Source: Nitrospirota bacterium
Lineage (GTDB): Bacteria; Nitrospirota; Thermodesulfovibrionia; Thermodesulfovibrionales; SM23-35
DNA: 64,000 nucleotides
NCBI GenBank assembly: GCA_014859105.1
Contig: JACUUX010000005.1
Coordinates: forward strand, 1,759 to 65,758
Reading direction: 5' to 3'
Positions within the stretch are counted from its first letter, which is position 1. Each line of letters opens with the position of its first letter. A model generated the notes under the pieces. The model worked only from the letters and a program-made list of their open reading frames with translations. It did no database searches and had not been told where the DNA came from. The translations under genes and the position numbers were made by a program. Positions 168 through 63,464 of this stretch are shown one piece after another.

Positions 168-1337
168 TCATGGGATGATCGCATATTTTATTCCTTCGCC
201 TTTTGACAGCTTATCGAATGCCTTTTGTATATTTTTTAGTGAATATCTCTCTGAAATAAGCTTCGAAACCTTAAGTTTTTTTGTTCGGAGAAGATCGTAA
301 GCCTTCTGCACATCTGATGGTGTATAATGGAAAACGCATCTCAGCGTTATCTCATTATAGTGGAGCCTACCTGCATCATAGGTTACTTTTGTGCCTGATT
401 TGCAACCGCCAAATAAGATAACTGTTCCGCCTCTTCTTACATAATTTATAGACGACTCCCATACCTCGGGCATTCCGGTGCATTCAAAGACGTAATCAAA
501 TCCAATGTTATTGGTGAATTTATTTAACTTAATATCCCCCTCACCCTTACCCTCTCCCACGAGGGGAGAGGGAATATATTCTTTGAAAAGTGACGATGAT
601 ACCCTATCGGATATTATTTCGTTTCTCAGCCATGTGTGTCCTGATAAACTCCCCTCCCTCGATGGGAGGGGTGTAGGGGAGGGTGAATCAGTAATTTTAG
701 AATTTATTACAAAATCCGCTCCAAGTTTTCTTGCAACATTAAGTTTCTTGCGATGTTTATCTGTTATAGTTACCCGCGCTCCCTTTTGTTTTAAAAGTAA
801 TAGATGTAGAAGTCCGATAGGTCCCGCACCTATAACAAGTGTGTTGTTATTTTTCTGAATATTGAGAGACTCTATGCCGTGAACTACACACGATAAGGGC
901 TCGAGAAAAGCAGCTTCTTCAAAAGTTATATTTTTAGGTTTATGAAATACATTTTGTTTTAGAATATGTGAAGGTAAAACCATATATTCTGCAAAAGCAC
1001 CGAGTATCTTTGTCTCCATTATCTTTTCACAGAGATTAGATGCCTTTTTTTTACAAAAGGCACACTTAAGACATGGAGCGCTATGAACTGACATTATCTC
1101 ATCACCTTCTTTGAATCTTCTCACTCCCCTGCCAACACCAGCAACTATCCCGGAAAATTCATGTCCGAAAACCCCAGGCATAGGGATCACAGGGTGGCCA
1201 CGTTTATAGGCTTTGAGATCAGTCCCACATGTCAGTGCTGCTTTGATCTTTACAAGTATTTCCCCGTGAAATGGTTTCGGAGTATTGATTTCCCGGAGTT
1301 CTATCTTACCCGGTTGAATAATGAAGCATGCCAGCAA
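168..1337 (-). CDS. Zn-dependent alcohol/polyol dehydrogenase (MDR family) with an in-frame repeat insertion
   Basis: Track ORF 168..1478 shows GHEFSG, the structural-Zn Cys cluster CLKCAFCKK and Rossmann GAGPIGL. Start moved to TTG 1337 (GGAG 8 nt upstream), directly after the stop of the upstream small ORF. Confidence 0.8.
   Translation of the reverse strand: MLACFIIQPGKIELREINTPKPFHGEILVKIKAALTCGTDLKAYKRGHPVIPMPGVFGHEFSGIVAGVGRGVRRFKEGDEIMSVHSAPCLKCAFCKKKASNLCEKIMETKILGAFAEYMVLPSHILKQNVFHKPKNITFEEAAFLEPLSCVVHGIESLNIQKNNNTLVIGAGPIGLLHLLLLKQKGARVTITDKHRKKLNVARKLGADFVINSKITDSPSPTPLPSREGSLSGHTWLRNEIISDRVSSSLFKEYIPSPLVGEGKGEGDIKLNKFTNNIGFDYVFECTGMPEVWESSINYVRRGGTVILFGGCKSGTKVTYDAGRLHYNEITLRCVFHYTPSDVQKAYDLLRTKKLKVSKLISERYSLKNIQKAFDKLSKGEGIKYAIIP
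536..688. repeat. ~153-nt palindromic-ended element inside the ADH coding frame
   Basis: Left end is CCCCTCACCCTTACCCTCTCCCACGAGGGGAGAGGG. Right end is CCCCTCCCTCGATGGGAGGGGTGTAGGGGAGGGTGA. The ends are inverted relative to each other and each is a hairpin. The element adds about 51 aa (DSPSPTPLPSREGS...PSPLVGEGKGEGD) in a surface loop of the Rossmann domain. Confidence 0.7.
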
Positions 1338-5146: not shown

Positions 5147-5199
5147 GAATAATACCTACTTACAAGTGTCATTGACCCGAAAATGTATCCGCCAGTTTT

Positions 5200-5300
5200 A
5201 TCATGCCGGCTTGTCCGGCATCTTTCTTCAAATCGCTAAATAAGGATTCCCGACAAGCCCTGTTAGAAATGAACTTTCTAACAGGGCAAGCGGGAATGAC
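5200..5300. repeat. GTCAT...ATGAC family copy 2, carrying a nested small palindrome
   Basis: ATCATGCCGGCTTGTCCGGCATCTTTCTTCAAA...GGATTCCCGACAAG[CCCTGTTAGAAATGAACTTTCTAACAGGG]CAAGCGGGAATGAC. Confidence 0.8.
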
Positions 5301-5464: not shown

Positions 5465-6706
5465 TCAAGGATTATAATACTTTTTTTTCTTTTTCAGATA
5501 CTCCTGTTCAACATTTCCACCGAAATCATGAGGATATTTGTATCCGGTTCCGTGTCCCAGTTTCTTAGCACCGGGATAATGGCTGTCTTTCAGATGATCC
5601 GGGACTTCCATTGTTTCTTCAGTTGAAATATCTTTCAAAGCAGCTTCGATTGCTTTATAACAGGCATTGCTTTTGGGAGCTTTTGCGATGTAAATAGTTG
5701 CCTGTGCAAGAGGTATCCTCGCCTCAGGCATGCCGATAAACTCTACGGCCCTCAGTGCAGCTGTGGCTATGATCAATGCCATGGGGTCTGCATTGCCTAC
5801 ATCTTCAGAGGCACATATGACAATGCGCCTTGCAATGAATCGAGGGTCTTCACCTGCATAAATCATTTTTGCGAGGTAATAAATGGCAGCATCCGGATCC
5901 GATCCTCGCATACTCTTTATGAAAGCAGAGATTGTATCATAATGCTGGTCGCCTTTTTTGTCATAGACAACTACTTTTTTCTGAATCGATTCTTCTGCTG
6001 TTTGAAAATTTATTTTTATCTTTCCCTGTTCATCAGGCGCACTTGTTAGTGCGGCTATTTCCAATGCTGAAAGAGCCTTTCTCGCATCTCCGTCAGACAT
6101 TTTAGCTATGTGTTTCAACGCTTCTTCATGAATTGTGATATCCATATTGCCCAGTCCCCGCTCTTTATCCTGTAGTGCGTAATTCAAGACTTTTAAGATA
6201 TCTTCTTCAGATAAAGGCTTTAATTCAAATACCTGGCTTCTTGAGAGGAGAGCTGAATTGACATAGAAGAACGGATTTTCTACTGTTGCGGCTATAAGTG
6301 TGATATTACCTTCCTCAACATCAGGGAGGAGAGCGTCCTGCTGGAGTTTATTGAACCTGTGTATCTCATCAAGGAAGACGATGGTATTTATCCCTTTAGA
6401 CTTTCTTGCCCTGGCATCCTTTATAACTTTCCTGATTTCGTCAAGCCCGATTGTAGCCGCATTGAGCCATCCGAAATGGGATTTTGTCTTTTCAGCAATC
6501 ACACGTGCAAGGGCTGTTTTGCCTGTTCCGGGAGGTCCATACAGGATAACCGATGAAATCCTGTCCGCCTCTATAGCCCTTCTCAGTAATTTGCCCCGAC
6601 CGAGGATGTGTTCCTGCCCGACGTATTCTTCGAAGGTTCTGGGACACATTCGAAAAGCAAGAGGCAGTGAAGAAGGAGAAAAGGCTTTCTCTTCAAATAG
6701 TGCCAT
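5465..6706 (-). CDS. rarA: replication-associated recombination protein A (AAA+ ATPase)
   Basis: GPPGTGKT Walker A, FLDEIHRFNK, and a MgsA C-terminal domain (PDAAIYYLAKMI, EDVGNADP). Confidence 0.9.
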   Translation of the reverse strand: MALFEEKAFSPSSLPLAFRMCPRTFEEYVGQEHILGRGKLLRRAIEADRISSVILYGPPGTGKTALARVIAEKTKSHFGWLNAATIGLDEIRKVIKDARARKSKGINTIVFLDEIHRFNKLQQDALLPDVEEGNITLIAATVENPFFYVNSALLSRSQVFELKPLSEEDILKVLNYALQDKERGLGNMDITIHEEALKHIAKMSDGDARKALSALEIAALTSAPDEQGKIKINFQTAEESIQKKVVVYDKKGDQHYDTISAFIKSMRGSDPDAAIYYLAKMIYAGEDPRFIARRIVICASEDVGNADPMALIIATAALRAVEFIGMPEARIPLAQATIYIAKAPKSNACYKAIEAALKDISTEETMEVPDHLKDSHYPGAKKLGHGTGYKYPHDFGGNVEQEYLKKKKKYYNP

Positions 6707-6919
6707 GAATTATGTTTGCTTATATGGGAGAAAATTTTCAAGCTATAGAAGGCGTGATAGGAATGTTCAGGACAATATTTCCCAACATTGCAATAAAATT
6801 GTATTATTTCTAATAAAAGGCGAAACACAAATATTCAGAATAATACTTTATAGCTAATGTAATGTCTCTCAATTAAGTGGAGTAATCAAGGAGATGATTA
6901 GTAAAGCTGTTCTTACTCT

Positions 6920-6992
6920 GTCATTCAGGCTCGTCCGGAATCTTTCTTCCGTTTCAGAAGGATTCCCGACGCCCTTCGCTTGCGGGAATGAC
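6920..6992. repeat. GTCAT...ATGAC family copy 4
   Basis: GTCATTCAGGCTCGTCCGGAATCTTTCTTCCGTTTCAGAAGGATTCCCGACGCCCTTCGCTTGCGGGAATGAC. Confidence 0.8.
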
Positions 6993-7090: not shown

Positions 7091-8134
7091 ATGAAAAAAA
7101 TATTGCTATTTTTCTTGCTTTTTTTATCTTCTGTAGCCTTTGCCCGGGAATTCTTAGATGTAACACCTGAATATAGAATAAAACTTCCTGAAGATTTTTA
7201 TTTCAAAAAAGAGTACAGAGTCCAGTGGTGGTATTTTACAGGACATCTGTTTGACAAAAATGGCAGGGAATTCGGATATGAGCTTACATTTTTTGTTGTG
7301 AATGTCCACAAAACAAATTATAAATCTCAATTCGGGGTAAACACTATATATATCTCACATTTTGCGATCTCAGATGTGAACGGAAACAAATTTTATTTCA
7401 GTGATAAGGCAGATGCAGGTGCATTCGGCTTTGCAGGTGCAAAAAAAGATCAGCTTGAGGTGTGGGTAGGGAAAAACGTCCTGAAAGGTAACATCGATAA
7501 AATGAATCTCAAGGCTTCAGATGATAAGAATATGATTGATCTAAAGTTGATGCCTGCAAAGCCCGTTGTCCTTAACGGTGAAAACGGATATTCAAGGAAG
7601 TCGGAAGAATCACCGTTGATTTCTTCGATATACTTTTCTTATACGAACATGAAAACCGAAGGAACATTAAAGACAGGTAATCAAACGTTTAATGTGAAAG
7701 GAAAGAGCTGGTTTGACAGGGAAATCTCATCAAGGGGTCTGTCGGAGAATCAGGAAGGATGGGACTGGTTTGCGATACAGCTTGATGATGGAAGGGAAAT
7801 AATGCTCTATATACTGAGAAATAAGGATGGCTCAATTGACAGGTATTCTTCAGGAACTTTTGTTTGTACTGATGGAAAATACCGGCTTCTTTCAATAGAT
7901 GACTTTAATGTAAAAGTCTTAGCTTCCTATAAATCTAAAAAAACAAAGGCAAGATATCCTTCTAAGTGGGATATCCGGATTCCATCCGAAAATCTTGTCC
8001 TTCTCGTCACACCTCTCATCGAAGATCAGGAAATACTTGCTTACGGCACAACAGGTAATTATTACTGGGAAGGGGCATGTAAGGTTGAAGGGACAGCAAA
8101 GGGCAGGGCATATGTGGAGATGACAGGATACTGA
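7091..8134 (+). CDS. secreted AttH/CrtC-like lipocalin-fold protein
   Basis: Signal peptide, then WWYFTGHL and GYELTFF motifs typical of the AttH / hydroxyneurosporene-synthase-like family. It sits upstream of an ABC ATPase and FtsX permease, as in the att-type cluster. Confidence 0.65.
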   Translation: MKKILLFFLLFLSSVAFAREFLDVTPEYRIKLPEDFYFKKEYRVQWWYFTGHLFDKNGREFGYELTFFVVNVHKTNYKSQFGVNTIYISHFAISDVNGNKFYFSDKADAGAFGFAGAKKDQLEVWVGKNVLKGNIDKMNLKASDDKNMIDLKLMPAKPVVLNGENGYSRKSEESPLISSIYFSYTNMKTEGTLKTGNQTFNVKGKSWFDREISSRGLSENQEGWDWFAIQLDDGREIMLYILRNKDGSIDRYSSGTFVCTDGKYRLLSIDDFNVKVLASYKSKKTKARYPSKWDIRIPSENLVLLVTPLIEDQEILAYGTTGNYYWEGACKVEGTAKGRAYVEMTGY

Positions 8135-17558: not shown

Positions 17559-17686
17559 GAAGGGGCTATTTAAAAAAATTAATCAAGTTTAGAGTTTATA
17601 AACCCGTGCCTATTGAGGGGAGGAATATCCTTTTTTTAGAGTTACTAAAAAGAAAATAGATAATATCACATTCCTGTACCTATTTT

Positions 17687-17745
17687 GTCATGCTGCCTTG
17701 TCCGGCATCTTTCTTGAAGAAGGATTCCAGACAAGCTGGAATGAC
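17687..17745. repeat. GTCAT...ATGAC family copy 5
   Basis: GTCATGCTGCCTTGTCCGGCATCTTTCTTGAAGAAGGATTCCAGACAAGCTGGAATGAC. Confidence 0.8.
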
Positions 17746-17801
17746 AGGCGATGTAGTATTACTTATAAAATCCTTAGTTAGACTCAATTTAGGAGATATT
17801 C

Positions 17802-20532: not shown

Positions 20533-22047
20533 ATGGCAAAGAAAAAGACACTGACTAACAATTTTGGCATGCCAGTTGCCGACGATCAGAACACCCTGAC
20601 AGCAGGCAACCCGGGGCCCGCTCTTATGCAGGATGTGCACCTTCTCGAAAAACTGGCACATTTTGATCGTGAGCGCATTCCAGAGCGCGTAGTACATGCC
20701 AAAGGGGCTGGCGCTTACGGTTACTTTGAGGTTACAAAAGACGTAACACAATGGACTAAGGCTAAGTTTCTCTCTAAAGTGGGGAAACGCACTGATTTAT
20801 TTATAAGATTTTCCACCGTTGGTGGTGAGAAAGGCTCCGCAGATGCTGAACGTGATCCCCGAGGATTCGCTATAAAGTTCTATACTGAGGAAGGAAACTA
20901 TGATATGGTGGGGAACAATACACCTGTTTTCTTCATCAGGGACCCCCTTAAGTTCGCTGACTTTATCCATACCCAAAAACGTAATCCGGCAACGAACTGT
21001 AAAGACCCTGATATGTTTTGGGATTTCCTCTCATTGACACCAGAATCCATCCACCAGGTTACTATCCTGTTTTCTGACCGTGGGACCCCCAAAACTTACA
21101 GGAACATGCACGGTTACAGCAGCCATACCTATAAATGGTATAACGATAAGGGTAAGTATTTCTGGGTAAAGTACCACTTCAAAAGCGAACAGGGCATCCA
21201 GAACCTTACCCGGGAAGAGGCGGAGATTATGAAAGGGAAAGACCCGGATCATGCCACCCGTGATCTCTATAACGCTATCGAACGTGGAGAATACCCCTCC
21301 TGGAGACTGGAGATGCAGATTATGACGCCTGAGCAGGCAGCAGATTATCGGTTTGACCCATTCGATGTTACAAAAGTATGGCCTCATGGAGACTATCCCC
21401 CTATAACGATAGGCCGTATGGTTCTGAACCGCAACCCTGAAAACTATTTTGCAGAGGTTGAGCAGGCTGCTTTCTCTCCTGGCAATTTTGTCCCGGGGAT
21501 AGGATCTTCTCTGGACAAAATGCTCCAAGGACGTCTCTTCAGCTACCACGACACCCATCGCCATCGACTCGGACCGAATTACCATCTCATTCCAGTGAAC
21601 TCTGCGAAGGGCTGCCCTATGAATAATTACCAGCGCGATGGTTTCATGCGTGTTGACGATAACGGGGGAGGCGCTCCGAACTATTACCCCAACAGTTTTG
21701 GTGGACCAGAACCAAATCCTAAAACAGGTGAACCGCCCTTTGAGGTTTCCGGTATAGCTGCACGCCATCGGTATACTCATCCCAATGATGATTTTGTGCA
21801 GCCCGGAGCATTGTATAACAAAGTAATGACTGATACTGATCGGGAACATCTTATCGGTAACATAGTTTCTCATCTGGGAGGAGCACAGAAGCGCATTCAG
21901 TTGCGCCAGACAGCCCTCTTCTATAAGGCTGCACCGGATTATGGCAATCGTGTGGCTAAAGGGCTCAATCTGGATGTGAAGGATGTTAAGCGTCTGGCTG
22001 AGATGTCTCATGAAGAAAGGGCACAAGCTACAATGTCAGAAGTCTAA
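20533..22047 (+). CDS. katA: monofunctional heme catalase (small-subunit type)
   Basis: [23 protein letters not shown], and the proximal Tyr region [14 protein letters not shown]. Confidence 0.95.
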
Positions 22048-22114: not shown

Positions 22115-22252
22115 GAATGAAAGGAGGACAATATGCCACAGGAGTTTAAACCTGGTTGCGCACGACCTACCACCGGGGGAGTTGTAGGAGGTGAAAAGAC
22201 ACAGAAAGAAACTTTACAAACTGAGCAGGCAATAAAAAAGGAGGAAAAGACC

Positions 22253-22861
22253 ATGCTTCTAATCGGTCGAAAAGCACCGGATTTCACAGCTCCGGCCTAT
22301 CATAAGGGGAAATTCGTTAATTTACAATTATCAGAATATTTCGGGAAATGGATTTTACTTTGTTTTTATCCTGGTGATTTTACATTCGTTTGAGCAACAG
22401 AGCTTTCAGCAGTTGCTGAAAAGTATCCGGAATTTAAAAAGCTAGGGGTAGAAATATTTTCCATGAGTATTGACAGTGTCTTTGTACACAAGATGTGGAA
22501 CGACCATGAGCTGTCAAAAATGGTGAGAGGCGGGGTACCTTTTCCTATGTTGTCTGATACCGGTGGGAAGGTAGGAAGTATTTATGGTATTTACGATGAG
22601 AATGCAGGCGTTGAGACCAGGGGGAGATTCATCATTGATCCGGACGGAATAATTCAGGGATATGAGGTATTAACACCACCGGTGGGACGAAATGTCAGTG
22701 AATCTCTCAGGCAGGTACAGGCATTCCAGTTGGTGCGGAAGAGCAAAGGGACAGAGGCGATTCCTTCAGGGTGGAGACCTGGAAAGATGACATTGAAACC
22801 AGGCCCGGAACTTGTCGGAAATGTCTGGAAGGTATGGAAGACGAAGATGGCATTTGACTGA
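22253..22861 (+). CDS. peroxiredoxin (AhpC/Prx1-like) with in-frame TGA at the peroxidatic Cys position; candidate selenoprotein
   Basis: Track ORFs 22133..22393 and 22463..22861 share one frame. Reading through TGA 22391..22393 gives FYPGDFTFV-U-ATELSAV...SIDSVFVHKMW. ATG 22253 follows an AGGAGG RBS. Confidence 0.7.
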
Positions 22862-23144: not shown

Positions 23145-25871
23145 TTATCTCCGAATGCTTCTCCTCTTCCACCACTTTTCAATCTCAACAGCGAAGAAAA
23201 CAACTGAAGACAGTCCAAAACACAACAATAACTCGGACAACGTAAGGGGGTTTGTTTTGAATATCGGGTTCAGATAAGGCACATATATTGTTGCCAGTTG
23301 AAGCAAGACAGTCAGTATAAATGCACCAATCAATGGCTTGTTAGATAATATCCCCTGTGAATAAAGAGATTCTTTCTCTGACCTGACTGCAAGGACATTG
23401 CCCATCTGACTAAGGCATAATACTGTAAACACCATAGTCTGCCAGTGCGTATTACCTGCATTGATTGCCATCGCCTGAGTAAATATAGAGACAGCACCCA
23501 TAAGAAGACCGACCCAGATTATTTGAATCCACATACCTGTAAATATATTTTCCTGGGGGTCCCTCGGTGGCCTTTTCATAATATCTTTCTCTGCCGGTTC
23601 TGCCGCAAGTGCCAGACCGGGAAGTCCATCTGTAACAAGATTAATCCATAAAATATGGATTGGCAGAAGCGGAAGAGGGAGTCCGAGGAAAGGTGCAAGG
23701 AATATCGTCCATATCTCTCCTGAATTGCTTGTCATAGTATATCTTATAAATTTACGTATATTATCAAATATCCGTCTGCCTTCCCTGACAGCTTTAACAA
23801 TAGTAGCGAAGTTGTCATCCAGTAATATCATGTGTGCTGCTTCTTTTGCCACATCAGTACCTGTAATACCCATCGCCACTCCTATATCCGCCCTTTTCAA
23901 TGCAGGCGCATCATTGACACCGTCTCCTGTCATTGCAACAAACTGCTTCCTGTCCTGAAGTGCCTTGATTATCTTCAACTTCTGTTCAGGTGCTACACGT
24001 GCATAAACTCTTATATCTTCAACCTGTTCCTCGAATTCTTCTAATGGTAATTTCTCAAGCTCCATCCCTGTGATTAGCGCTTTTGAATCATCCTCAATGA
24101 TACTGAGCCTCTTAGCAATTACCCTTGCTGTAATTGGATGATCACCTGTAATCATCACGGGTTTTATCCCCGCAGTTTTACATAATGCTACTGCCTCTTT
24201 AGCTTCTTCTCTTGGAGGGTCCATCATGCCTATAAGCCCTAAGAGGGTAAGCTCTGATTCAATATTTTCAGGTGACATATCATCTGGCAATGCATTCCAG
24301 GTTCTCATTGCAATACACAAAACCCTTAATCCATCAGCAGCCATTCTTTCACCTGCCTGTATTATTTCCAATGGATTGACAGGTTTTATTCCCTCTGCTG
24401 TAAAGATGCCCATTGATCTTTCAATAAGCACATCAATCGCACCCTTTGTGAAGGAAACAAATCCCCCCCTGCCCCCCTTTTCTAAAGGGGGGTGAGGGGG
24501 GATTACATGAAACGTGGTCATACACTTCCTGTCTGAATCAAAGGGTATTTCACTGACCCTTACAAATTTCCTTTCAAGCACTTTTTTATGAAAACCGTTA
24601 TCTTTCGCAATATTATAAAGGGCAATTTCTGTGGGGTCGCCGATGACATTGCCCTGGGCGTCCATATGTGCATCGTTGCTTAAGGCAAGAGCAGTCATCA
24701 GTAAATCATGCGGTGATTGAAATAAGGATGCATGATGCATGATACCAGATGCATTATTTCCTGTATCCTGAGGCTTATATCCGGAATCCTGCACCGTGCA
24801 TCTTAACTCCTGTACCTTGATCATCTTTCCATCCACCCGCAACTCTTCCACCGCCATCTTGTTCAATGTAAGTGTTCCAGTCTTGTCAGAGCATACGTAT
24901 GTGACGGATCCGAGGGTCTCCACCGCAGGGAGTTTTCTTATGAGAGCATTCTGTTTGACCATCTTTTTAGCACCAATTGCAAGAGAAATGGTTACAACCG
25001 CAGGCAGTGCCTCAGGTATTGCTGCAACAGCAAGGGATACGGCTGTGAGAAGCATCAAAAGAGGGGGTTCTCCTCTAAATATTCCTATGCTGAAAACAAT
25101 AGCGCATATGCCCAAAACTGCAATAGCGAGTTTCTGACCAAACCTGGCAAGCCTCTTCTGGAGAGGTGTCTTTACCTCTTTTTCTTCCTGAAGCAAGGTT
25201 GCAATCCTGCCCAGTTCTGTCTCCATACCGGTCATTGCAACAATACCTGTTCCCCGACCATATGTAGCGAATGTTCCCTTATACGCCATGTTTTTCCTGT
25301 CACCGATTGGTAAAAGCTCACCATGCAGTGGCTTAGTATGTTTTTCTATCGGTATGGATTCCCCTGTCAATGCTGCCTCTTCAATTTTTAGCTGAACAGC
25401 CTCCGTAAGCCTCATATCGGCAGGAACAATCTTTCCTGCTTCAAGGATTACAATATCACCCGGAACGACTTGAGATGCAGGGATATTTAAAAGCATCCCA
25501 TCCCTCATTACTGTTGCAATGGGCGCTGCCATTTTTTTAAGGGCGGCCATTGCCTTCTCAGCCCTGTATTCCTGAACAAATCCTATTACGGCGTTTATGA
25601 TGATAATCACCAATATTGCTATGGTATCTGCAAGCTCTCCGATTATTCCTGAGACTATTGCAGCAATCATAAGGACAATAATCATGAAGTCACTGAATTG
25701 ATCAAGGAACATTATGAGAGGGTTTTTCTTCTTTTTTTCTTTTAATATGTTTAGACCATAATGCCCGAGTCTCCTCCTGGCTTCATCACTGGAAAGTCCG
25801 TCCGGCGAAGTTTTTAACTCGCTAAAAATGCTGTCTATATCTTTTTGGTGCCAATGCATATTATTTTTCAT
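23145..25871 (-). CDS. cation-transporting P-type ATPase (P2, Ca2+/Mg2+-type) with two in-frame repeat insertions
   Basis: DKTGTLT, TGES, PEALPAV (TM4), [11 protein letters not shown]. Confidence 0.9.
24470..24514. repeat. 45-nt G6/C6 palindrome inside the ATPase frame
   Basis: AATCCCCCCCTGCCCCCCTTTTCTAAAGGGGGGTGAGGGGGGATT; encodes [15 protein letters not shown]. Confidence 0.85.
24726..24793. repeat. ~70-nt CAGGAT/ATGCATC-rich element inside the ATPase frame
   Basis: Encodes [24 protein letters not shown] related element is present in tgt. Confidence 0.65.
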
Positions 25872-31423: not shown

Positions 31424-31457
31424 TTACTAAGGCGGCTATAAGTAAAGCTACATTGAT

Positions 31458-31522
31458 GTCATTCCCGCTTGTCGGGAATCTTTCTGAAAAAACCAGAAGG
31501 ATTGCGGACAAGCCGCAATGAC
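31458..31522. repeat. GTCAT...ATGAC family copy 6
   Basis: GTCATTCCCGCTTGTCGGGAATCTTTCTGAAAAAACCAGAAGGATTGCGGACAAGCCGCAATGAC. Confidence 0.85.
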
Positions 31523-31586
31523 AGAAAGTGATATGAATGTCGCCTTACTAATGACCGCATTAGTAATTAACAGATATAAAAAGAGA

Positions 31587-32460: not shown

Positions 32461-32583
32461 TAATACAAACGCATTAAGTAAAATGTCATTGCGAGGAGCG
32501 CTAGCGATGTGGCAATCCCAAAAACGAGATTGCTTCGCTTCGCTCGCAATGACAATGTAAAGATATTAAGTGCGTTTGTATTA
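32461..32583. repeat. ~123-bp element: CATTGCGAGG...GCAATGAC core flanked by 13-17-bp inverted repeats
   Basis: Core is GTCATTGCGAGGAGCGCTAGCGATGTGGCAATCC...GAGATTGCTTCGCTTCGCTCGCAATGAC. Outer inverted repeat is TAATACAAACGCA / TGCGTTTGTATTA. Confidence 0.75.
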
Positions 32584-37290: not shown

Positions 37291-39483
<2,193 letters not shown>

Positions 39484-39532
39484 AAAATTGCAGTCAAGAT
39501 AGGACATTCTTTTGCAGGTTTCAATAAATATA

Positions 39533-44472: not shown

Positions 44473-44548
44473 GGGCCCATAGCTCAGCTGGAAGAGCTAC
44501 CGGCTCATAACCGGTTGGTCCCAGGTTCGAGTCCTGGTGGGCCCACCA
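44473..44548 (+). tRNA. tRNA with CAU anticodon (elongator Met or lysidine-modified Ile2)
   Basis: Cloverleaf: acceptor GGGCCCA/TGGGCCC, D stem GCTC/GAGC, anticodon stem ACCGG/CCGGT with loop CTCATAA, T arm CCAGG-TTCGAGT-CCTGG, encoded CCA. Confidence 0.9.
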
Positions 44549-45404: not shown

Positions 45405-45801
45405 AAGTCAGAGCAGGGAAGTGGTCGCTCGGCTTTGATTTTTAATCATAGCCGAGAGGAAAGTCCGAACTCCGCAGGGCAAGGCGCTCCGTAATACGGA
45501 GTGGGGGAAACCCTAAGGAAAGTGCCACAGAAAGGGAAACCGTCCCGACTTTGTCGGAATAAGGGTGAAAAGGTGAGGTAAGAGCTCACCAGTTGGGGTG
45601 GTAACACCTCAAGCTTGGTAAACCCCGCCTGGAGCAAGGTCAAATAGGTTCCGCCTTGAGAAGGGCCCCTTCGAATCCTGACCTGCATAATGGAATCAGG
45701 GAGGCGGAACGGGTAAGGACTGCAAGAGTCTGATGGCAACATAAGACCTTAGATGAATGACCACACATATACAGAACTCGGCTTACAGCCTGCTCTGACT
45801 T
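45405..45801 (+). ncRNA. rnpB: RNase P RNA, bacterial type A
   Basis: P1 pairing AAGTCAGAGCAGG / CCTGCTCTGACTT. Conserved GAGGAAAGTCCG, ACAGAAA, GGTAAGAGCTCACC, GGTAAACCCC and ACAGAACTCGGCTTACAG. Confidence 0.95.
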
Positions 45802-46768: not shown

Positions 46769-48376
46769 TTAATCATCATTTTCACTTTTAAAATACCTAT
46801 AATCGATTTTCTGGAATATATTATCTATGTCTTCTATCTCTTTGAGCTTTTCTCTTGAAATATTCCCTGTTATAATTGAGTGATAAAGATAATTGAATCT
46901 GCCTATATGTTCCGCAAAACGTTTTCTTGCGTATTCTGAAGTGTTGCCGGTCCTTATCATAAATGTCCAGTCACTCTGCTGTGATAAAAGAAGTTCCCTC
47001 GCAGCCTGGTTGAGCGTCCTTTTCTGAATATTATCTGCCTCAAAAAATTTATCTGCAAGATATATCATCCTTTCTGTAGCCTTCAATATGTGCGGATAAA
47101 CATAGTCATTAGATTCATTCAACCAGACTTCACTGTAACCCTTATAGCCCCAGCTCGACATTGATGGCTGACAGGCTTGTAAATATTCAGTTTGATGCGT
47201 GTTCAGATGCAGATACTCTGATGGTGTTACGGTTTTAAAATTCCTGCGTGTCCGGGATATACCTCTAAAAAGAAAATAAAGCCATTCAGGCCCTTCAAAC
47301 CACCAGTGACCGAAAAGCTCTGTATCATAAGTAGCAGTGATTACCGGTTTGATTTTTAGGGTTTGTGAGAGAAAATCAATCTGTAGTTCTCTGTTTTGAA
47401 TAAAATTATTTGCGTGTTCAGAAGCTTTCTCTTTTGCCTGCTCAATTACATAAGGTTCTTTATGATCTGTCTTCCCGGTTATTCTGTAATACTTGAGCCC
47501 GGTGTAGGTTTTTGTTCCGAATTGATTAATAAAAGCTTTTATATGCCCGCATTCAAGATCATACCCTATATCCCTGTAAAAATCCCTGTAATCAAAGTCC
47601 CCGGGATAACCAAAAATAGAAGACCAGACCTGTTGAGAAGATTCAACATCCCGCCCAAAAGCAAAAACACCTGAAGGACAGACTACCGGGGCATAAACAT
47701 TAAACCCCGGTGATGGATTTCCACAGGTTATTCCATGTGTTTCAAGGAAAAAAAACTTTATATCCTCCTCTTTCAGATAATTGTCAAAGCCCGGTTCATA
47801 GCCGCATTCAGGAAGCCAGATACCTTCAGGTTCCTTTCTGAAAAATTTTCTGTACAAAGCTGAGCCTATCTTTATTTGCGCTCTCACTGCCTGGGGATAT
47901 TTCGATAATGTGGGAAGAAATGCATGGGTAGCAGCAGAGGTTATAATTTCTATTTTTCCTGTTTGCTCCAACGCCTTAAAGGCAGCAACAATATCTCTAT
48001 GATACAGGTCCTCAAACAAATATCTTATTCTCCTGAACCTCTCATTATACATCCTTGTAACAGGCTCAAAATTGATATCCCCTCTTGTCCTGTAAACTTC
48101 TTTGTCTGATAGATCTATTAAATTCTCAATATGCCTTTTATATCTGTTGCGCAAAAGCCTGTCATTTAACATCTCAATAAGGGTTGGGCTAAGGGAAATT
48201 GTTATACGGAAATCTATTCCTTCATTTAAAAGTCTTATGAATACATCAAGGAGTGGTATATAAGTTTCTGTTATTGCCTCAAAAAGCCAGTTTTCCTCAA
48301 GGAAATATTCATATTCAGGATGTCTGATAAAGGGTAAATGGGCATGAAGAACAATGCAAAGATAGCCCTTATGCAT
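46769..48376 (-). CDS. GH57 family alpha-glucan branching enzyme-like protein
   Basis: LHAHLPF(I/V)RHPE opening, internal ELFGHWW, about 535 aa. Confidence 0.8.
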   Translation of the reverse strand: MHKGYLCIVLHAHLPFIRHPEYEYFLEENWLFEAITETYIPLLDVFIRLLNEGIDFRITISLSPTLIEMLNDRLLRNRYKRHIENLIDLSDKEVYRTRGDINFEPVTRMYNERFRRIRYLFEDLYHRDIVAAFKALEQTGKIEIITSAATHAFLPTLSKYPQAVRAQIKIGSALYRKFFRKEPEGIWLPECGYEPGFDNYLKEEDIKFFFLETHGITCGNPSPGFNVYAPVVCPSGVFAFGRDVESSQQVWSSIFGYPGDFDYRDFYRDIGYDLECGHIKAFINQFGTKTYTGLKYYRITGKTDHKEPYVIEQAKEKASEHANNFIQNRELQIDFLSQTLKIKPVITATYDTELFGHWWFEGPEWLYFLFRGISRTRRNFKTVTPSEYLHLNTHQTEYLQACQPSMSSWGYKGYSEVWLNESNDYVYPHILKATERMIYLADKFFEADNIQKRTLNQAARELLLSQQSDWTFMIRTGNTSEYARKRFAEHIGRFNYLYHSIITGNISREKLKEIEDIDNIFQKIDYRYFKSENDD

Positions 48377-50914: not shown

Positions 50915-51051
50915 CAGCAATTCTCGGTGAAATTGAAAACCCTTGAGATTGCTTCGCTTCGCTCGCAATGACAAAACAATATTTCGTAAACAGTCATTGC
51001 GAGGGGCCTTATCCTGAAGCAATCTCCTAACTTTTTCGCCGAGAATTGCTG
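50915..51051. mobile_element. 137-bp MITE-like element with 13-14-bp TIRs and a flanking direct repeat
   Basis: TIRs are CAGCAATTCTCGG (50915..50927) and CCGAGAATTGCTG (51039..51051). Flanks are CACATTTA (50906..50913) and CACATTTA (51052..59). The interior holds two inverted CATTGCGAGG/GCAATC modules. Confidence 0.75.
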
Positions 51052-56651: not shown

Positions 56652-56727
<76 letters not shown>

Positions 56728-62687: not shown

Positions 62688-63416
62688 TCAAGCTGAACTT
62701 CTTAATTTCTCCAGAACCTTCTGTGCATCCTCCCAGGTCCGCCATTTATCTTTTGGGTTCCTGATTAAATAGGCAGGGTGAAATGTCGGCATCAAGAGAA
62801 TACCCTTGTAATCGAAAAATTTGCCACGTATTGATGTTATTTTTAACTTGGGATTTCCTGTAAGGGTTAGTGCTGCTATCCTGCCCAGGGCCATAATTAT
62901 TTTCGGCCTTATTATTTCTATCTGCCTTTCAAGAAAACTCCTGCATTTTTCTATCTCATCTGCTTCAGGCTCCCGATTCATAGGAGGTCTGCATTTAACT
63001 ATGTTTGCAATATATACATCCTCCCTCATGAATCCCATTTTTTCTATGAGCCTAGTGAGCAACATGCCTGCGTCTCCTACAAATGGTTTTGCCTGTAGGT
63101 CCTCTTGCTTACCGGGTGCCTCACCAATAAACATAAGATTTGCATCGGGATTGCCTTCTCCGAAAACTATATTTGTTCTTTGGATTGAAAGCTTGCACCT
63201 CCTGCAATCATTAATCTCTTCTCTCAGTGCTTTCAAGGCTGCCTCTTTAATCCCCCCACACCCCCCTTTAGAAAAGGGGGGTAAGGGGGGATTTTGGTTC
63301 AGAGATTTGACATCTGTAATTTGACTTTTGATTTTTAATTTTATCGGTAGATGTTCAAATCCTAATGCCTGATAAAATTCGAGAATGTTTTTTATTTGCT
63401 CAACAATACTTGCCAT
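62688..63416 (-). CDS. uracil-DNA glycosylase family 4 with an in-frame 45-nt palindrome
   Basis: CRRCKL, GEAPG, FHPAYLIRNP. Start at ATG 63416. Confidence 0.85.
   Translation of the reverse strand: MASIVEQIKNILEFYQALGFEHLPIKLKIKSQITDVKSLNQNPPLPPFSKGGCGGIKEAALKALREEINDCRRCKLSIQRTNIVFGEGNPDANLMFIGEAPGKQEDLQAKPFVGDAGMLLTRLIEKMGFMREDVYIANIVKCRPPMNREPEADEIEKCRSFLERQIEIIRPKIIMALGRIAALTLTGNPKLKITSIRGKFFDYKGILLMPTFHPAYLIRNPKDKWRTWEDAQKVLEKLRSSA
63249..63293. repeat. 45-nt G6/C6 palindrome inside the UDG frame
   Basis: AATCCCCCCACACCCCCCTTTAGAAAAGGGGGGTAAGGGGGGATT; encodes [15 protein letters not shown]. Confidence 0.85.
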
Positions 63417-63464
63417 TCTTAATTTTGAATTTTGAGTTTGAATTTTGAATTTCAAATTTTTTTA

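Follow-up and report, generated by a model that had tools for sequence, protein, structure and literature searches.

A degenerate inverted heptamer-array repeat translated in frame within a Ca2+-type P-type ATPase gene of an uncultured Nitrospirota bacterium

In-frame palindromes are usually treated as a Rickettsia curiosity, and heptamer repeats as an intergenic phenomenon. The heptanucleotide repeats of cyanobacteria known as STRR were reportedly described by Mazel et al. in 1990. Here we report on a 64,000-nucleotide stretch of contig JACUUX010000005.1 from a Nitrospirota bacterium (hereafter the window), in which the gene of a Ca2+-type P-type ATPase contains an in-frame segment made of two opposed arrays of 7-nt units, and in which a second segment of the same family lies in the gene tgt. 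We compare this element with the described systems that it most resembles.

As summarised in PMC10969869, the Rickettsia palindromic elements (RPE; Ogata et al. 2000, 2002) are small palindromic repeats that stand in frame in unrelated Rickettsia genes and are translated; they measure about 150 bp, form defined families and are confined to Rickettsia, and their description does not mention a construction from 7-nt units. Heptanucleotide repeats are given in two other papers as the commonest long simple sequence repeats (SSR) of bacteria, for which slippage has been proposed (Mrazek et al. 2007, via PMC4679880, PMC4692102). Examples are the TAACTGA repeat of Beggiatoaceae (PMC4679880) and the GGGAATC and GGGGAYT repeats of Xanthomonas and Nostoc, respectively, a few of the Xanthomonas arrays being paired in inverted orientation (PMC4692102). 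Miniature inverted-repeat transposable elements (MITE) are characterized by defined terminal inverted repeats, target-site duplications and a parent insertion sequence. REPINs are tied to a RAYT transposase, and a GTAG or CGTC tag marks most REPs, as stated in PMC3733652. Finally, the tandem direct repeats of Borgs create disordered protein regions, according to PMC9879509.

The ATPase segment is probably a dispersed repeat that was copied into the gene long ago, has since partly decayed and is tolerated as a passenger in a permissive loop. It belongs to a dispersed family and resides in frame in such a loop, the host enzyme keeps its motifs, and the copy is decayed compared with canonical ones. 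The family layout consists of (CAGGATR)n, followed by an A-rich centre and then by (CRTGCAT)n; the opposed arrays are roughly reverse-complementary, so that a single strand can form a long imperfect hairpin. The ATPase copy displays period-7 units in opposed orientation around an A-rich centre, its 5' units being decayed (Table 1), and heptamer-like units possibly run on to about position 24815. In its 3' half, Tandem Repeats Finder detects a period of 7 with 4.0 copies and 71% matches (24727-24754). The 3'-array pattern used for the genome scan described below matches 24727-24752 and also, with 4 mismatches, the opposite strand of the 5' half. By lag-7 autocorrelation, the ATPase and tgt sites are both among the top six of the window. 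Folded as RNA, the copy gives an imperfect hairpin that pairs both halves (-23.2 kcal/mol, z=-2.2 against dinucleotide shuffles, the corresponding z for a canonical copy being -3.8), while folding as DNA gives a weak signal. The peptide is 55-70% identical to those of canonical copies, except for a single one at 43%. It agrees with the consensus IQDxGYRIQDxxNHASCIMHHAS at 15 of its 20 defined positions, in frame (..QD.GY..QD..N.AS.IMHHAS). A preliminary description of this DNA, made from its letters alone, had read the segment and its 23-codon peptide correctly (they lie on the minus strand) but ended the segment at 24793, which is one base short: 24726-24794 translates, whereas 24726-24793 is out of frame. 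Its limits were also too narrow, as the element reaches three codons further upstream, to 24803. The description of 7-nt units in two opposed arrays and of their spread over several phyla goes beyond that earlier account.

The word structure that the segment had been said to have in common with an insert in tgt is indeed present at both sites. CAGGATNC occurs 10 times in the window, twice in the ATPase segment and twice in tgt (38797-38825), and ATGCATC-type words cluster at both sites. In a direct pairwise comparison of their DNA, the two copies share 21 nt at 90% identity (E=0.06). Since this similarity is modest, we tested the relationship through the wider family, using an nhmmer profile of 19 Nitrospirota-type copies from other genomes with the ATPase orthologues excluded. 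This profile detects exactly two sites in the 64 kb, one in the ATPase (24725-24803, 50.5 bits, E=6.7e-15, profile positions 6-84, ungapped) and one in tgt (45.6 bits), the next match having an E value of 0.69. Weaker matches are found on the opposite strand at both sites, as a palindrome predicts. Because the scan pattern had been derived from the 3' arrays of the window itself, we built a second profile restricted to the 5' 50 nt, which again ranked tgt (5e-6) and the ATPase (4e-4; 24759-24806) first, the next and unrelated match having an E value of 0.45. Both window copies score below the canonical ones, which reach 65-79 bits, and they are thus worn. It is accordingly very improbable that the N domain simply has a native, lineage-specific linker here, which would resemble the tgt insert by compositional chance. 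The loop does vary throughout the P2-type ATPases, SERCA having a much longer one, and the direct pairwise similarity to tgt is weak, but a profile match at E=7e-15 with nothing else but tgt scoring in the window, the period-7 signal and the agreement of the ATPase peptide with a consensus from unrelated enzymes argue against such an origin.

The tgt insert is clean and measures about 31 aa relative to the solved TGTs: residues 177-210 have just 3 counterpart residues in the solved bacterial and human TGT structures. Tandem Repeats Finder reports a period-7 array at 38728-38758. The DNA layout of this copy is that of the ATPase copy plus a nested piece, which has a small stem of its own (CUCUU/AAGAG) and encodes 11 residues. 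The nested peptide faintly recalls the PPLxKGG palindrome that is seen in ATPase orthologues.

The host protein has its best PDB matches in the Listeria Ca2+-ATPase LMCA1 (E=6e-190, residues 9-897), SPCA1 and SERCA, and the DKTGT phosphorylation motif, the other motifs and the full-length similarity to Ca2+-ATPases place it in the P2A type. It is 100% identical to an NCBI protein entitled 'MAG: Nitrospirae bacterium' (P0001; 904 aa, from a 101.7 kb contig), beyond which the next relative is only 75% identical. We aligned the ORF with 26 orthologues of 72-77% identity. In these 27 sequences DKTGT, TGES, MITGDH and a further motif of 11 residues are invariant columns, in agreement with the earlier statement that the P-type motifs are kept. 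The same alignment, which had been named as a check, shows that two N-domain loops are hypervariable in length and that most orthologues are without the QD-type segment. The loop following DKTGTLT...VDGK measures 41 aa in this ATPase, compared with 14-19 aa in the shortest close orthologues, and LMCA1 is about 24 aa shorter across the element stretch; the segment is therefore insertion-like, as had been proposed. An AlphaFold model computed from the shallow 27-sequence alignment was poor overall (mean pLDDT 58.7), and we used it only to set the inserts against the N domain. Values of 80-89 are found over most of the N domain, and values below 50 at residues 358-381 and 462-467, which are the two inserts; this weak evidence fits flexible surface loops. 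The 26 extra residues would thus form a low-confidence, probably surface-exposed loop. The consequence for the ATPase is probably nil, the extra N-domain loop most likely being a harmless passenger.

Several orthologues carry other hairpins in these loops. In the orthologue P0032, QD-type elements occupy the two N-domain loops, while P0052 combines a QD-type element in loop 2 with a GGAGTTA-unit hairpin in loop 1, and P0004 and P0005 carry period-8 (YTCTCAAC) hairpins in loop 1. PPLxKGG-type palindromes are present in either loop of several further orthologues. The loop hairpins of the orthologues share one order, namely a purine-rich array, a GAARAAAAT-like centre and a pyrimidine-rich array. 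This variety of hairpins in the same loops suggests that the loops either tolerate insertions unusually well or attract them. At the DNA level, the hairpins of period 8 (YTCTCAAC) lie in the orthologue genes L124:1001-3703 and L126:126-2849, and that of period 7 (GGAGTTA) in L003:3562-6240, in the same N-domain loop.

To delimit the family, we took two copies from the window and two from P0032, derived a 42-bit IUPAC pattern from their 3' arrays, and scanned a 596-Gb collection of species-representative genomes, for which about 0.3 chance matches were estimated. At least 119 stretches were found. The matches listed come from Nitrospirota, Nitrospinota, Chloroflexota, Bacteroidota, Desulfobacterota, Acidobacteriota, Planctomycetota, candidate phyla and a cyanobacterium, and many of them are plain tandem arrays. 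In 37 of 124 matches listed, the 42 nt upstream agree at 60% or more of their positions with a tandem reverse complement of that copy's 3' unit; not one of 106 control segments does so. The arms differ between lineages yet stay complementary: the 5' and 3' units are CAGGATR and CRTGCAT in Nitrospirota, GCAAGAR and CYTGCAT in Chloroflexota, CACRATG and CATYGTG in Muribaculaceae, and CAGGATG and CATCCTG in Sulfomarinibacteraceae, the last two pairs being perfect complements. Canonical relatives possess 4-6 near-perfect units per array, the number varying between copies. Among the loci examined, Nitrospirae bacterium GWF2_44_13 accounts for at least 9 strict-pattern and 6 further profile matches, 6 of these 15 lying on one 24-kb contig.

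In 35 of 123 pattern matches listed, the reading frame continues without a stop for 80 codons or more in either direction, and the in-frame copies of Nitrospirota read ...RIQDAGYRIQDxxNHASCIMHHAS.... Pfam places copies between or within the conserved domains of unrelated enzymes: a radical-SAM/DUF2344 protein, a CobB/CobQ-type amidotransferase, anthranilate synthase I (TrpE), a MurD-like ligase, a PMT_2 glycosyltransferase, QueC, QueA, carbamoyl-phosphate synthase (CarB) and HypF. The preliminary description had held that the absence of further copies, together with presence of the segment in distant orthologues, would count against an inserted element; what we found are copies in tgt and in many unrelated genes elsewhere. 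By inspection, the repeat units themselves are stop-free in sense frames. The reverse complement of (CATGCAT)n contains TGA, and the Nitrospirota-type genic copies examined consequently share one orientation; the A-rich centre limits the usable reading frames.

All 119 matches listed (loci L005-L123) derive from metagenome-assembled genomes (MAG) and none is labelled as a cultured isolate, and short tandem repeats can confuse assemblers, which would speak for an assembly artefact. The segment is however in frame and mid-contig, an identical NCBI protein comes from a 101.7 kb contig, and independent MAGs from different studies share an element at an identical position within a given gene, so that we regard this explanation as extremely improbable.

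Searches in other directions gave little. Among 2.9 million viral contigs the same DNA pattern matched only once, in a giant-virus MAG (L127), which gives no indication that phages carry the element. Two element peptides were joined into a 47-aa probe, for which a word-indexed protein search returned no candidate sharing three words. With phmmer, the 30-aa ATPase segment gave 5 matches at E<=0.001 against 1.84 billion representatives, this 30-residue query being underpowered; three of them are translated (CAGGATA)n arrays (P0122, P0124, P0125) and two are unrelated repeat proteins. These three public 'proteins' (QDTGYRIQDTGYRI...) are purely translated (CAGGATA)n and probably result from spurious gene calling across long heptamer arrays. 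No paper containing the unit sequences or the peptides was found in literature searches, and a search linking RPE-like elements to Nitrospirota or Chloroflexi found nothing relevant.

The spread of the family bears on how the ATPase copy arose. The arrays might have grown in place, a seed being expanded by slippage and fold-back template switching producing the opposed array, with no transfer between sites. Slippage has been proposed for heptanucleotide repeats, reported as the most abundant long bacterial SSRs in the papers cited above (PMC4679880, PMC4692102); the unit number differs between copies, and the same ATPase loop holds, in orthologues, hairpins of other units with the same layout, including those of period 8. 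We nevertheless consider growth in place quite unlikely. It would not give the same unit, centre and array order in unrelated genes, within and across genomes, and a single 7-nt step shifts the frame, so that stepwise growth in an essential gene would be strongly counter-selected. The occurrence of identical units, centre and order in unrelated genes argues instead for copying. We thus propose that the ATPase copy would have arrived by copying from a pre-existing copy, with hairpin-dependent transposition and recombination or gene conversion as candidate routes, and that its unit number would then have drifted by replication slippage. It may have persisted since its units are stop-free in sense frames, its length is a multiple of three and its residues are located in a loop. 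Selection would keep only those copies that leave the frame intact and are placed where the fold tolerates them, and the element would now be a tolerated passenger rather than a working part of the pump.

The conservation of some copies and their folding suggest another possibility, namely that a functional nucleic-acid structure is kept by selection, either as RNA from the complementary strand or as a single-stranded DNA hairpin bound by a protein, the ATPase merely hosting it. In CobB/CbiA orthologues of three species (L033 ~7896-7970, L046 ~6303-6379, L089 ~2289-2366) the element occupies the same site and is 92-98% identical between species, and its 5' array, which lay outside the scan pattern, is identical at 37-39 of 40 positions (93-98%), as compared with 45-64 of 80 and 45 of 60 (56-80%) in the flanking coding DNA. 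This conservation suggests maintenance, concerted evolution or site-specific re-insertion; it is tempered but not removed by the preference of the pattern for undecayed copies. We also folded 19 Nitrospirota-type and 14 Chloroflexi-type copies (loci L006-L110) as RNA. The strand complementary to the QD reading strand, which begins with the purine-rich array, folds about 10 kcal/mol better: the means are -31.1 (complementary) and -20.9 kcal/mol for the Nitrospirota type (n=19), and -37.4 (complementary) and -27.2 kcal/mol for the Chloroflexi type (n=14). In the Nitrospirota set the predicted stems contain 72 G·U pairs on the complementary strand and 8 on the other. Such a G·U-rich asymmetry is a signature typical of selected RNA structure. 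However, the ATPase copy of the window is decayed and folds equally well on both strands (-27.6 and -27.5 kcal/mol), and intergenic copies show no clear orientation bias relative to neighbouring genes as delimited by crude gene calls. A scan for promoters and terminators around the ATPase element gave no signal, and an Rfam search with the element identified no family, the single match being a meaningless one to a miRNA precursor (E=0.65). In addition, the pattern selects undecayed copies, and concerted evolution among copies could mimic selection. Selection for a nucleic-acid structure therefore appears unlikely to us as the explanation of the ATPase segment. A possible link to CsrA was considered, CAGGATG corresponding to the CsrB repeat, and was set aside: a search of the window with a crude motif gave no CsrA-like ORF, and the units of the Chloroflexi type lack GGA.

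Several observations weigh against the view of a copied and tolerated passenger. The copying step itself is a conjecture, no transposase being tied to the family and no termini or target-site duplication having been made out. The better conservation of the cobB element than of its flanks is unlike purely passive passenger DNA, and neither this conservation nor the strand asymmetry is explained by a passenger. The source genome is not among the matches listed, and only 64 kb of it enter the analysis, with two copies, both genic. As regards the profile tests, only the 5' part of the profile is independent of the window copies, since the scan pattern came from their 3' arrays. In P0032 the element starts after [MV]IK, at the same point as the heptamer-like units in the window ATPase; a related QD-type segment at the same place may mean that the insertion is ancient and shared and not lineage-specific. 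Finally, the element as a whole does not stand out by a lack of stop codons, since a mean of about 2.3 open frames out of 6 is near chance for about 77 nt.

Compared with the described systems, the element resembles RPE as a dispersed small palindrome that adds an in-frame peptide at a fold-compatible site and leaves the host gene intact. Like RPE it stands in frame in unrelated genes, here those of the ATPase and tgt and elsewhere those of CobB, TrpE, a MurD-like protein, QueA, QueC, HypF and CarB. It differs from RPE by its length of about 70-105 nt (78 nt for the ATPase copy, against about 100-150 bp for RPE), its variable heptamers and its hosts, which are Nitrospirota and, for its relatives, other phyla; kinship in sequence is not expected. 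By this analogy, the element would work like RPE, but its length, host and construction set it apart, and we do not file it as RPE. With the heptanucleotide SSR and STRR it shares a 7-nt unit repeated head-to-tail in variable number, dispersal over the genome and a scattered phylogenetic distribution. However, the published SSR cases are described as mainly intergenic and mostly unpaired, at least the G-rich ones being under-represented in coding regions (PMC4679880, PMC4692102), whereas the arrays described here are paired head-to-head around an A-rich centre, lie in frame and have other unit sequences. A predominantly intergenic location was not observed, both window copies being genic and long open frames surrounding the 35 listed matches mentioned above. 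RPE is thus the closest functional parallel, while the arrays are structurally of the heptanucleotide-SSR kind. The element is also short, of non-coding size, hairpin-forming, dispersed and present in many copies per genome, as are MITE and REP/REPIN. As regards MITE, its arms are inverted, yet its ends are ragged and its unit number varies, and no target duplication is recognizable at the decayed window copies; complementarity between the flanks of a few canonical copies is anecdotal. By eye, no GTAG or CGTC tag was seen at the ends of the inspected copies. The element resembles the Borg repeats, as described in PMC9879509, in that a DNA-level repeat is translated into a new and probably disordered protein segment, and it differs from them in its inverted, dispersed 7-nt layout, the Borg repeats being tandem and direct.

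Known kinds are therefore combined here: an in-frame palindrome and heptamer arrays occur together in core enzymes of free-living, uncultured Nitrospirota, in a layout that recurs in several phyla. For annotation, this means that the segments make protein alignments longer than they should be and distort them, as they do the limits of domains; the QueC, QueA and HypF domains that carry them are 40-50 residues longer than the Pfam profiles. Translated elements can also pose as spurious repeat proteins. Conversely, the elements show, as natural insertions, which loops of well-studied enzymes tolerate extra sequence. Should the conservation and the strand asymmetry hold, they would point to an unrecognised mechanism that maintains small hairpin DNA. 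Somewhat speculatively, the ATPase insert might be a worn member of an apparently undescribed and actively maintained multi-phylum class of hairpin elements, in which opposed arrays of 7-8-nt units surround an A-rich centre and which would settle in frame in conserved protein-coding genes; this class may include Nitrospirota, Nitrospinota, Chloroflexota, Bacteroidota, Desulfobacterota and others. Active maintenance would imply a dedicated mechanism or function, for instance a hairpin-specific enzyme, templated repeat addition or a role as RNA or single-stranded DNA.

The ATPase gene contains a second in-frame palindrome, located in the other N-domain loop, which confirms the earlier claim that this gene hosts two different in-frame elements. 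It recurs at 63248-63294 as an inverted and direct repeat and is translated into 14 residues both in the ATPase and in a uracil-DNA-glycosylase-like (UDG-like) ORF. Its predicted hairpin has an energy of -35.6 kcal/mol, and it belongs to a different family from the heptamer-array element. Period-7 arrays of AAATTCA/AATTTTG units were also noticed around the UDG-like gene, at 63421-63460 just upstream of its likely start and at 63320-63342 within its N-terminal extension.

Table 1. Location of the heptamer-array copies, their host genes and other features of the window.
Feature	Position	Strand	Description
Host ATPase ORF	23145-25871	minus	908 aa, P2A-type (Ca2+) P-type ATPase
Element in the ATPase protein	residues ~357-382		start of N domain; 26 codons
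Degenerate inverted heptamer-array copy	24726-24803	minus	26 codons, 78 nt, translated within the ATPase
5' array	24760-24803	minus	about six decayed units, AGATGCA CGGTGCA GGATTCC GGATATA AGCCTCA GGATACA GG (family unit CAGGATR)
A-rich centre	24753-24759	minus	AAATAAT; GAWRAAAAAT in canonical copies; from profile alignment and copy comparison
3' array	24726-24752	minus	GCATCTG GTATCAT GCATCAT GCATCC (family unit GCATCRT = CRTGCAT)
C-run/G-run palindrome AATCCCCCC...GGGGGGATT	24459-24505	minus	in frame, ATPase loop before SFTKGA
tgt ORF	38163-39353	minus	insert at residues 176-209
Second family copy in the window	38727-38832	minus	in frame in tgt; nhmmer E=2.3e-13
Nested piece ccctctgtccactcttagtaaagaggg...	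38762-38794	minus	33 nt, central within the tgt copy; aligned to the profile as an insert state
GTCATTCCCGCTTGCCGGGAATCTTTCTT sites	1727-1794, 5196-5271, 6916-6951, 17683-17749, 31454-31526, 39421-39487, 47233-47268
RNase P RNA (class A)	45409-45801
tRNA genes	44473-44545, 56655-56727

Other features of the window were noted in passing. A peroxiredoxin gene on the plus strand (22133-22861), adjoined by a catalase gene (20533-22047), has an in-frame TGA at 22391-22393, where the peroxidatic cysteine is expected (DFTFV*ATE), and probably encodes a selenocysteine peroxiredoxin. An intergenic repeat family, GTCATTCCCGCTTGCCGGGAATCTTTCTT, often forms head-to-head pairs at gene ends, one pair being situated just upstream of tgt. 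An exact repeat of 30 nt, GAGATTGCTTCGCTTCGCTCGCAATGACAA, is found at 32526-32555 and 50945-50974.

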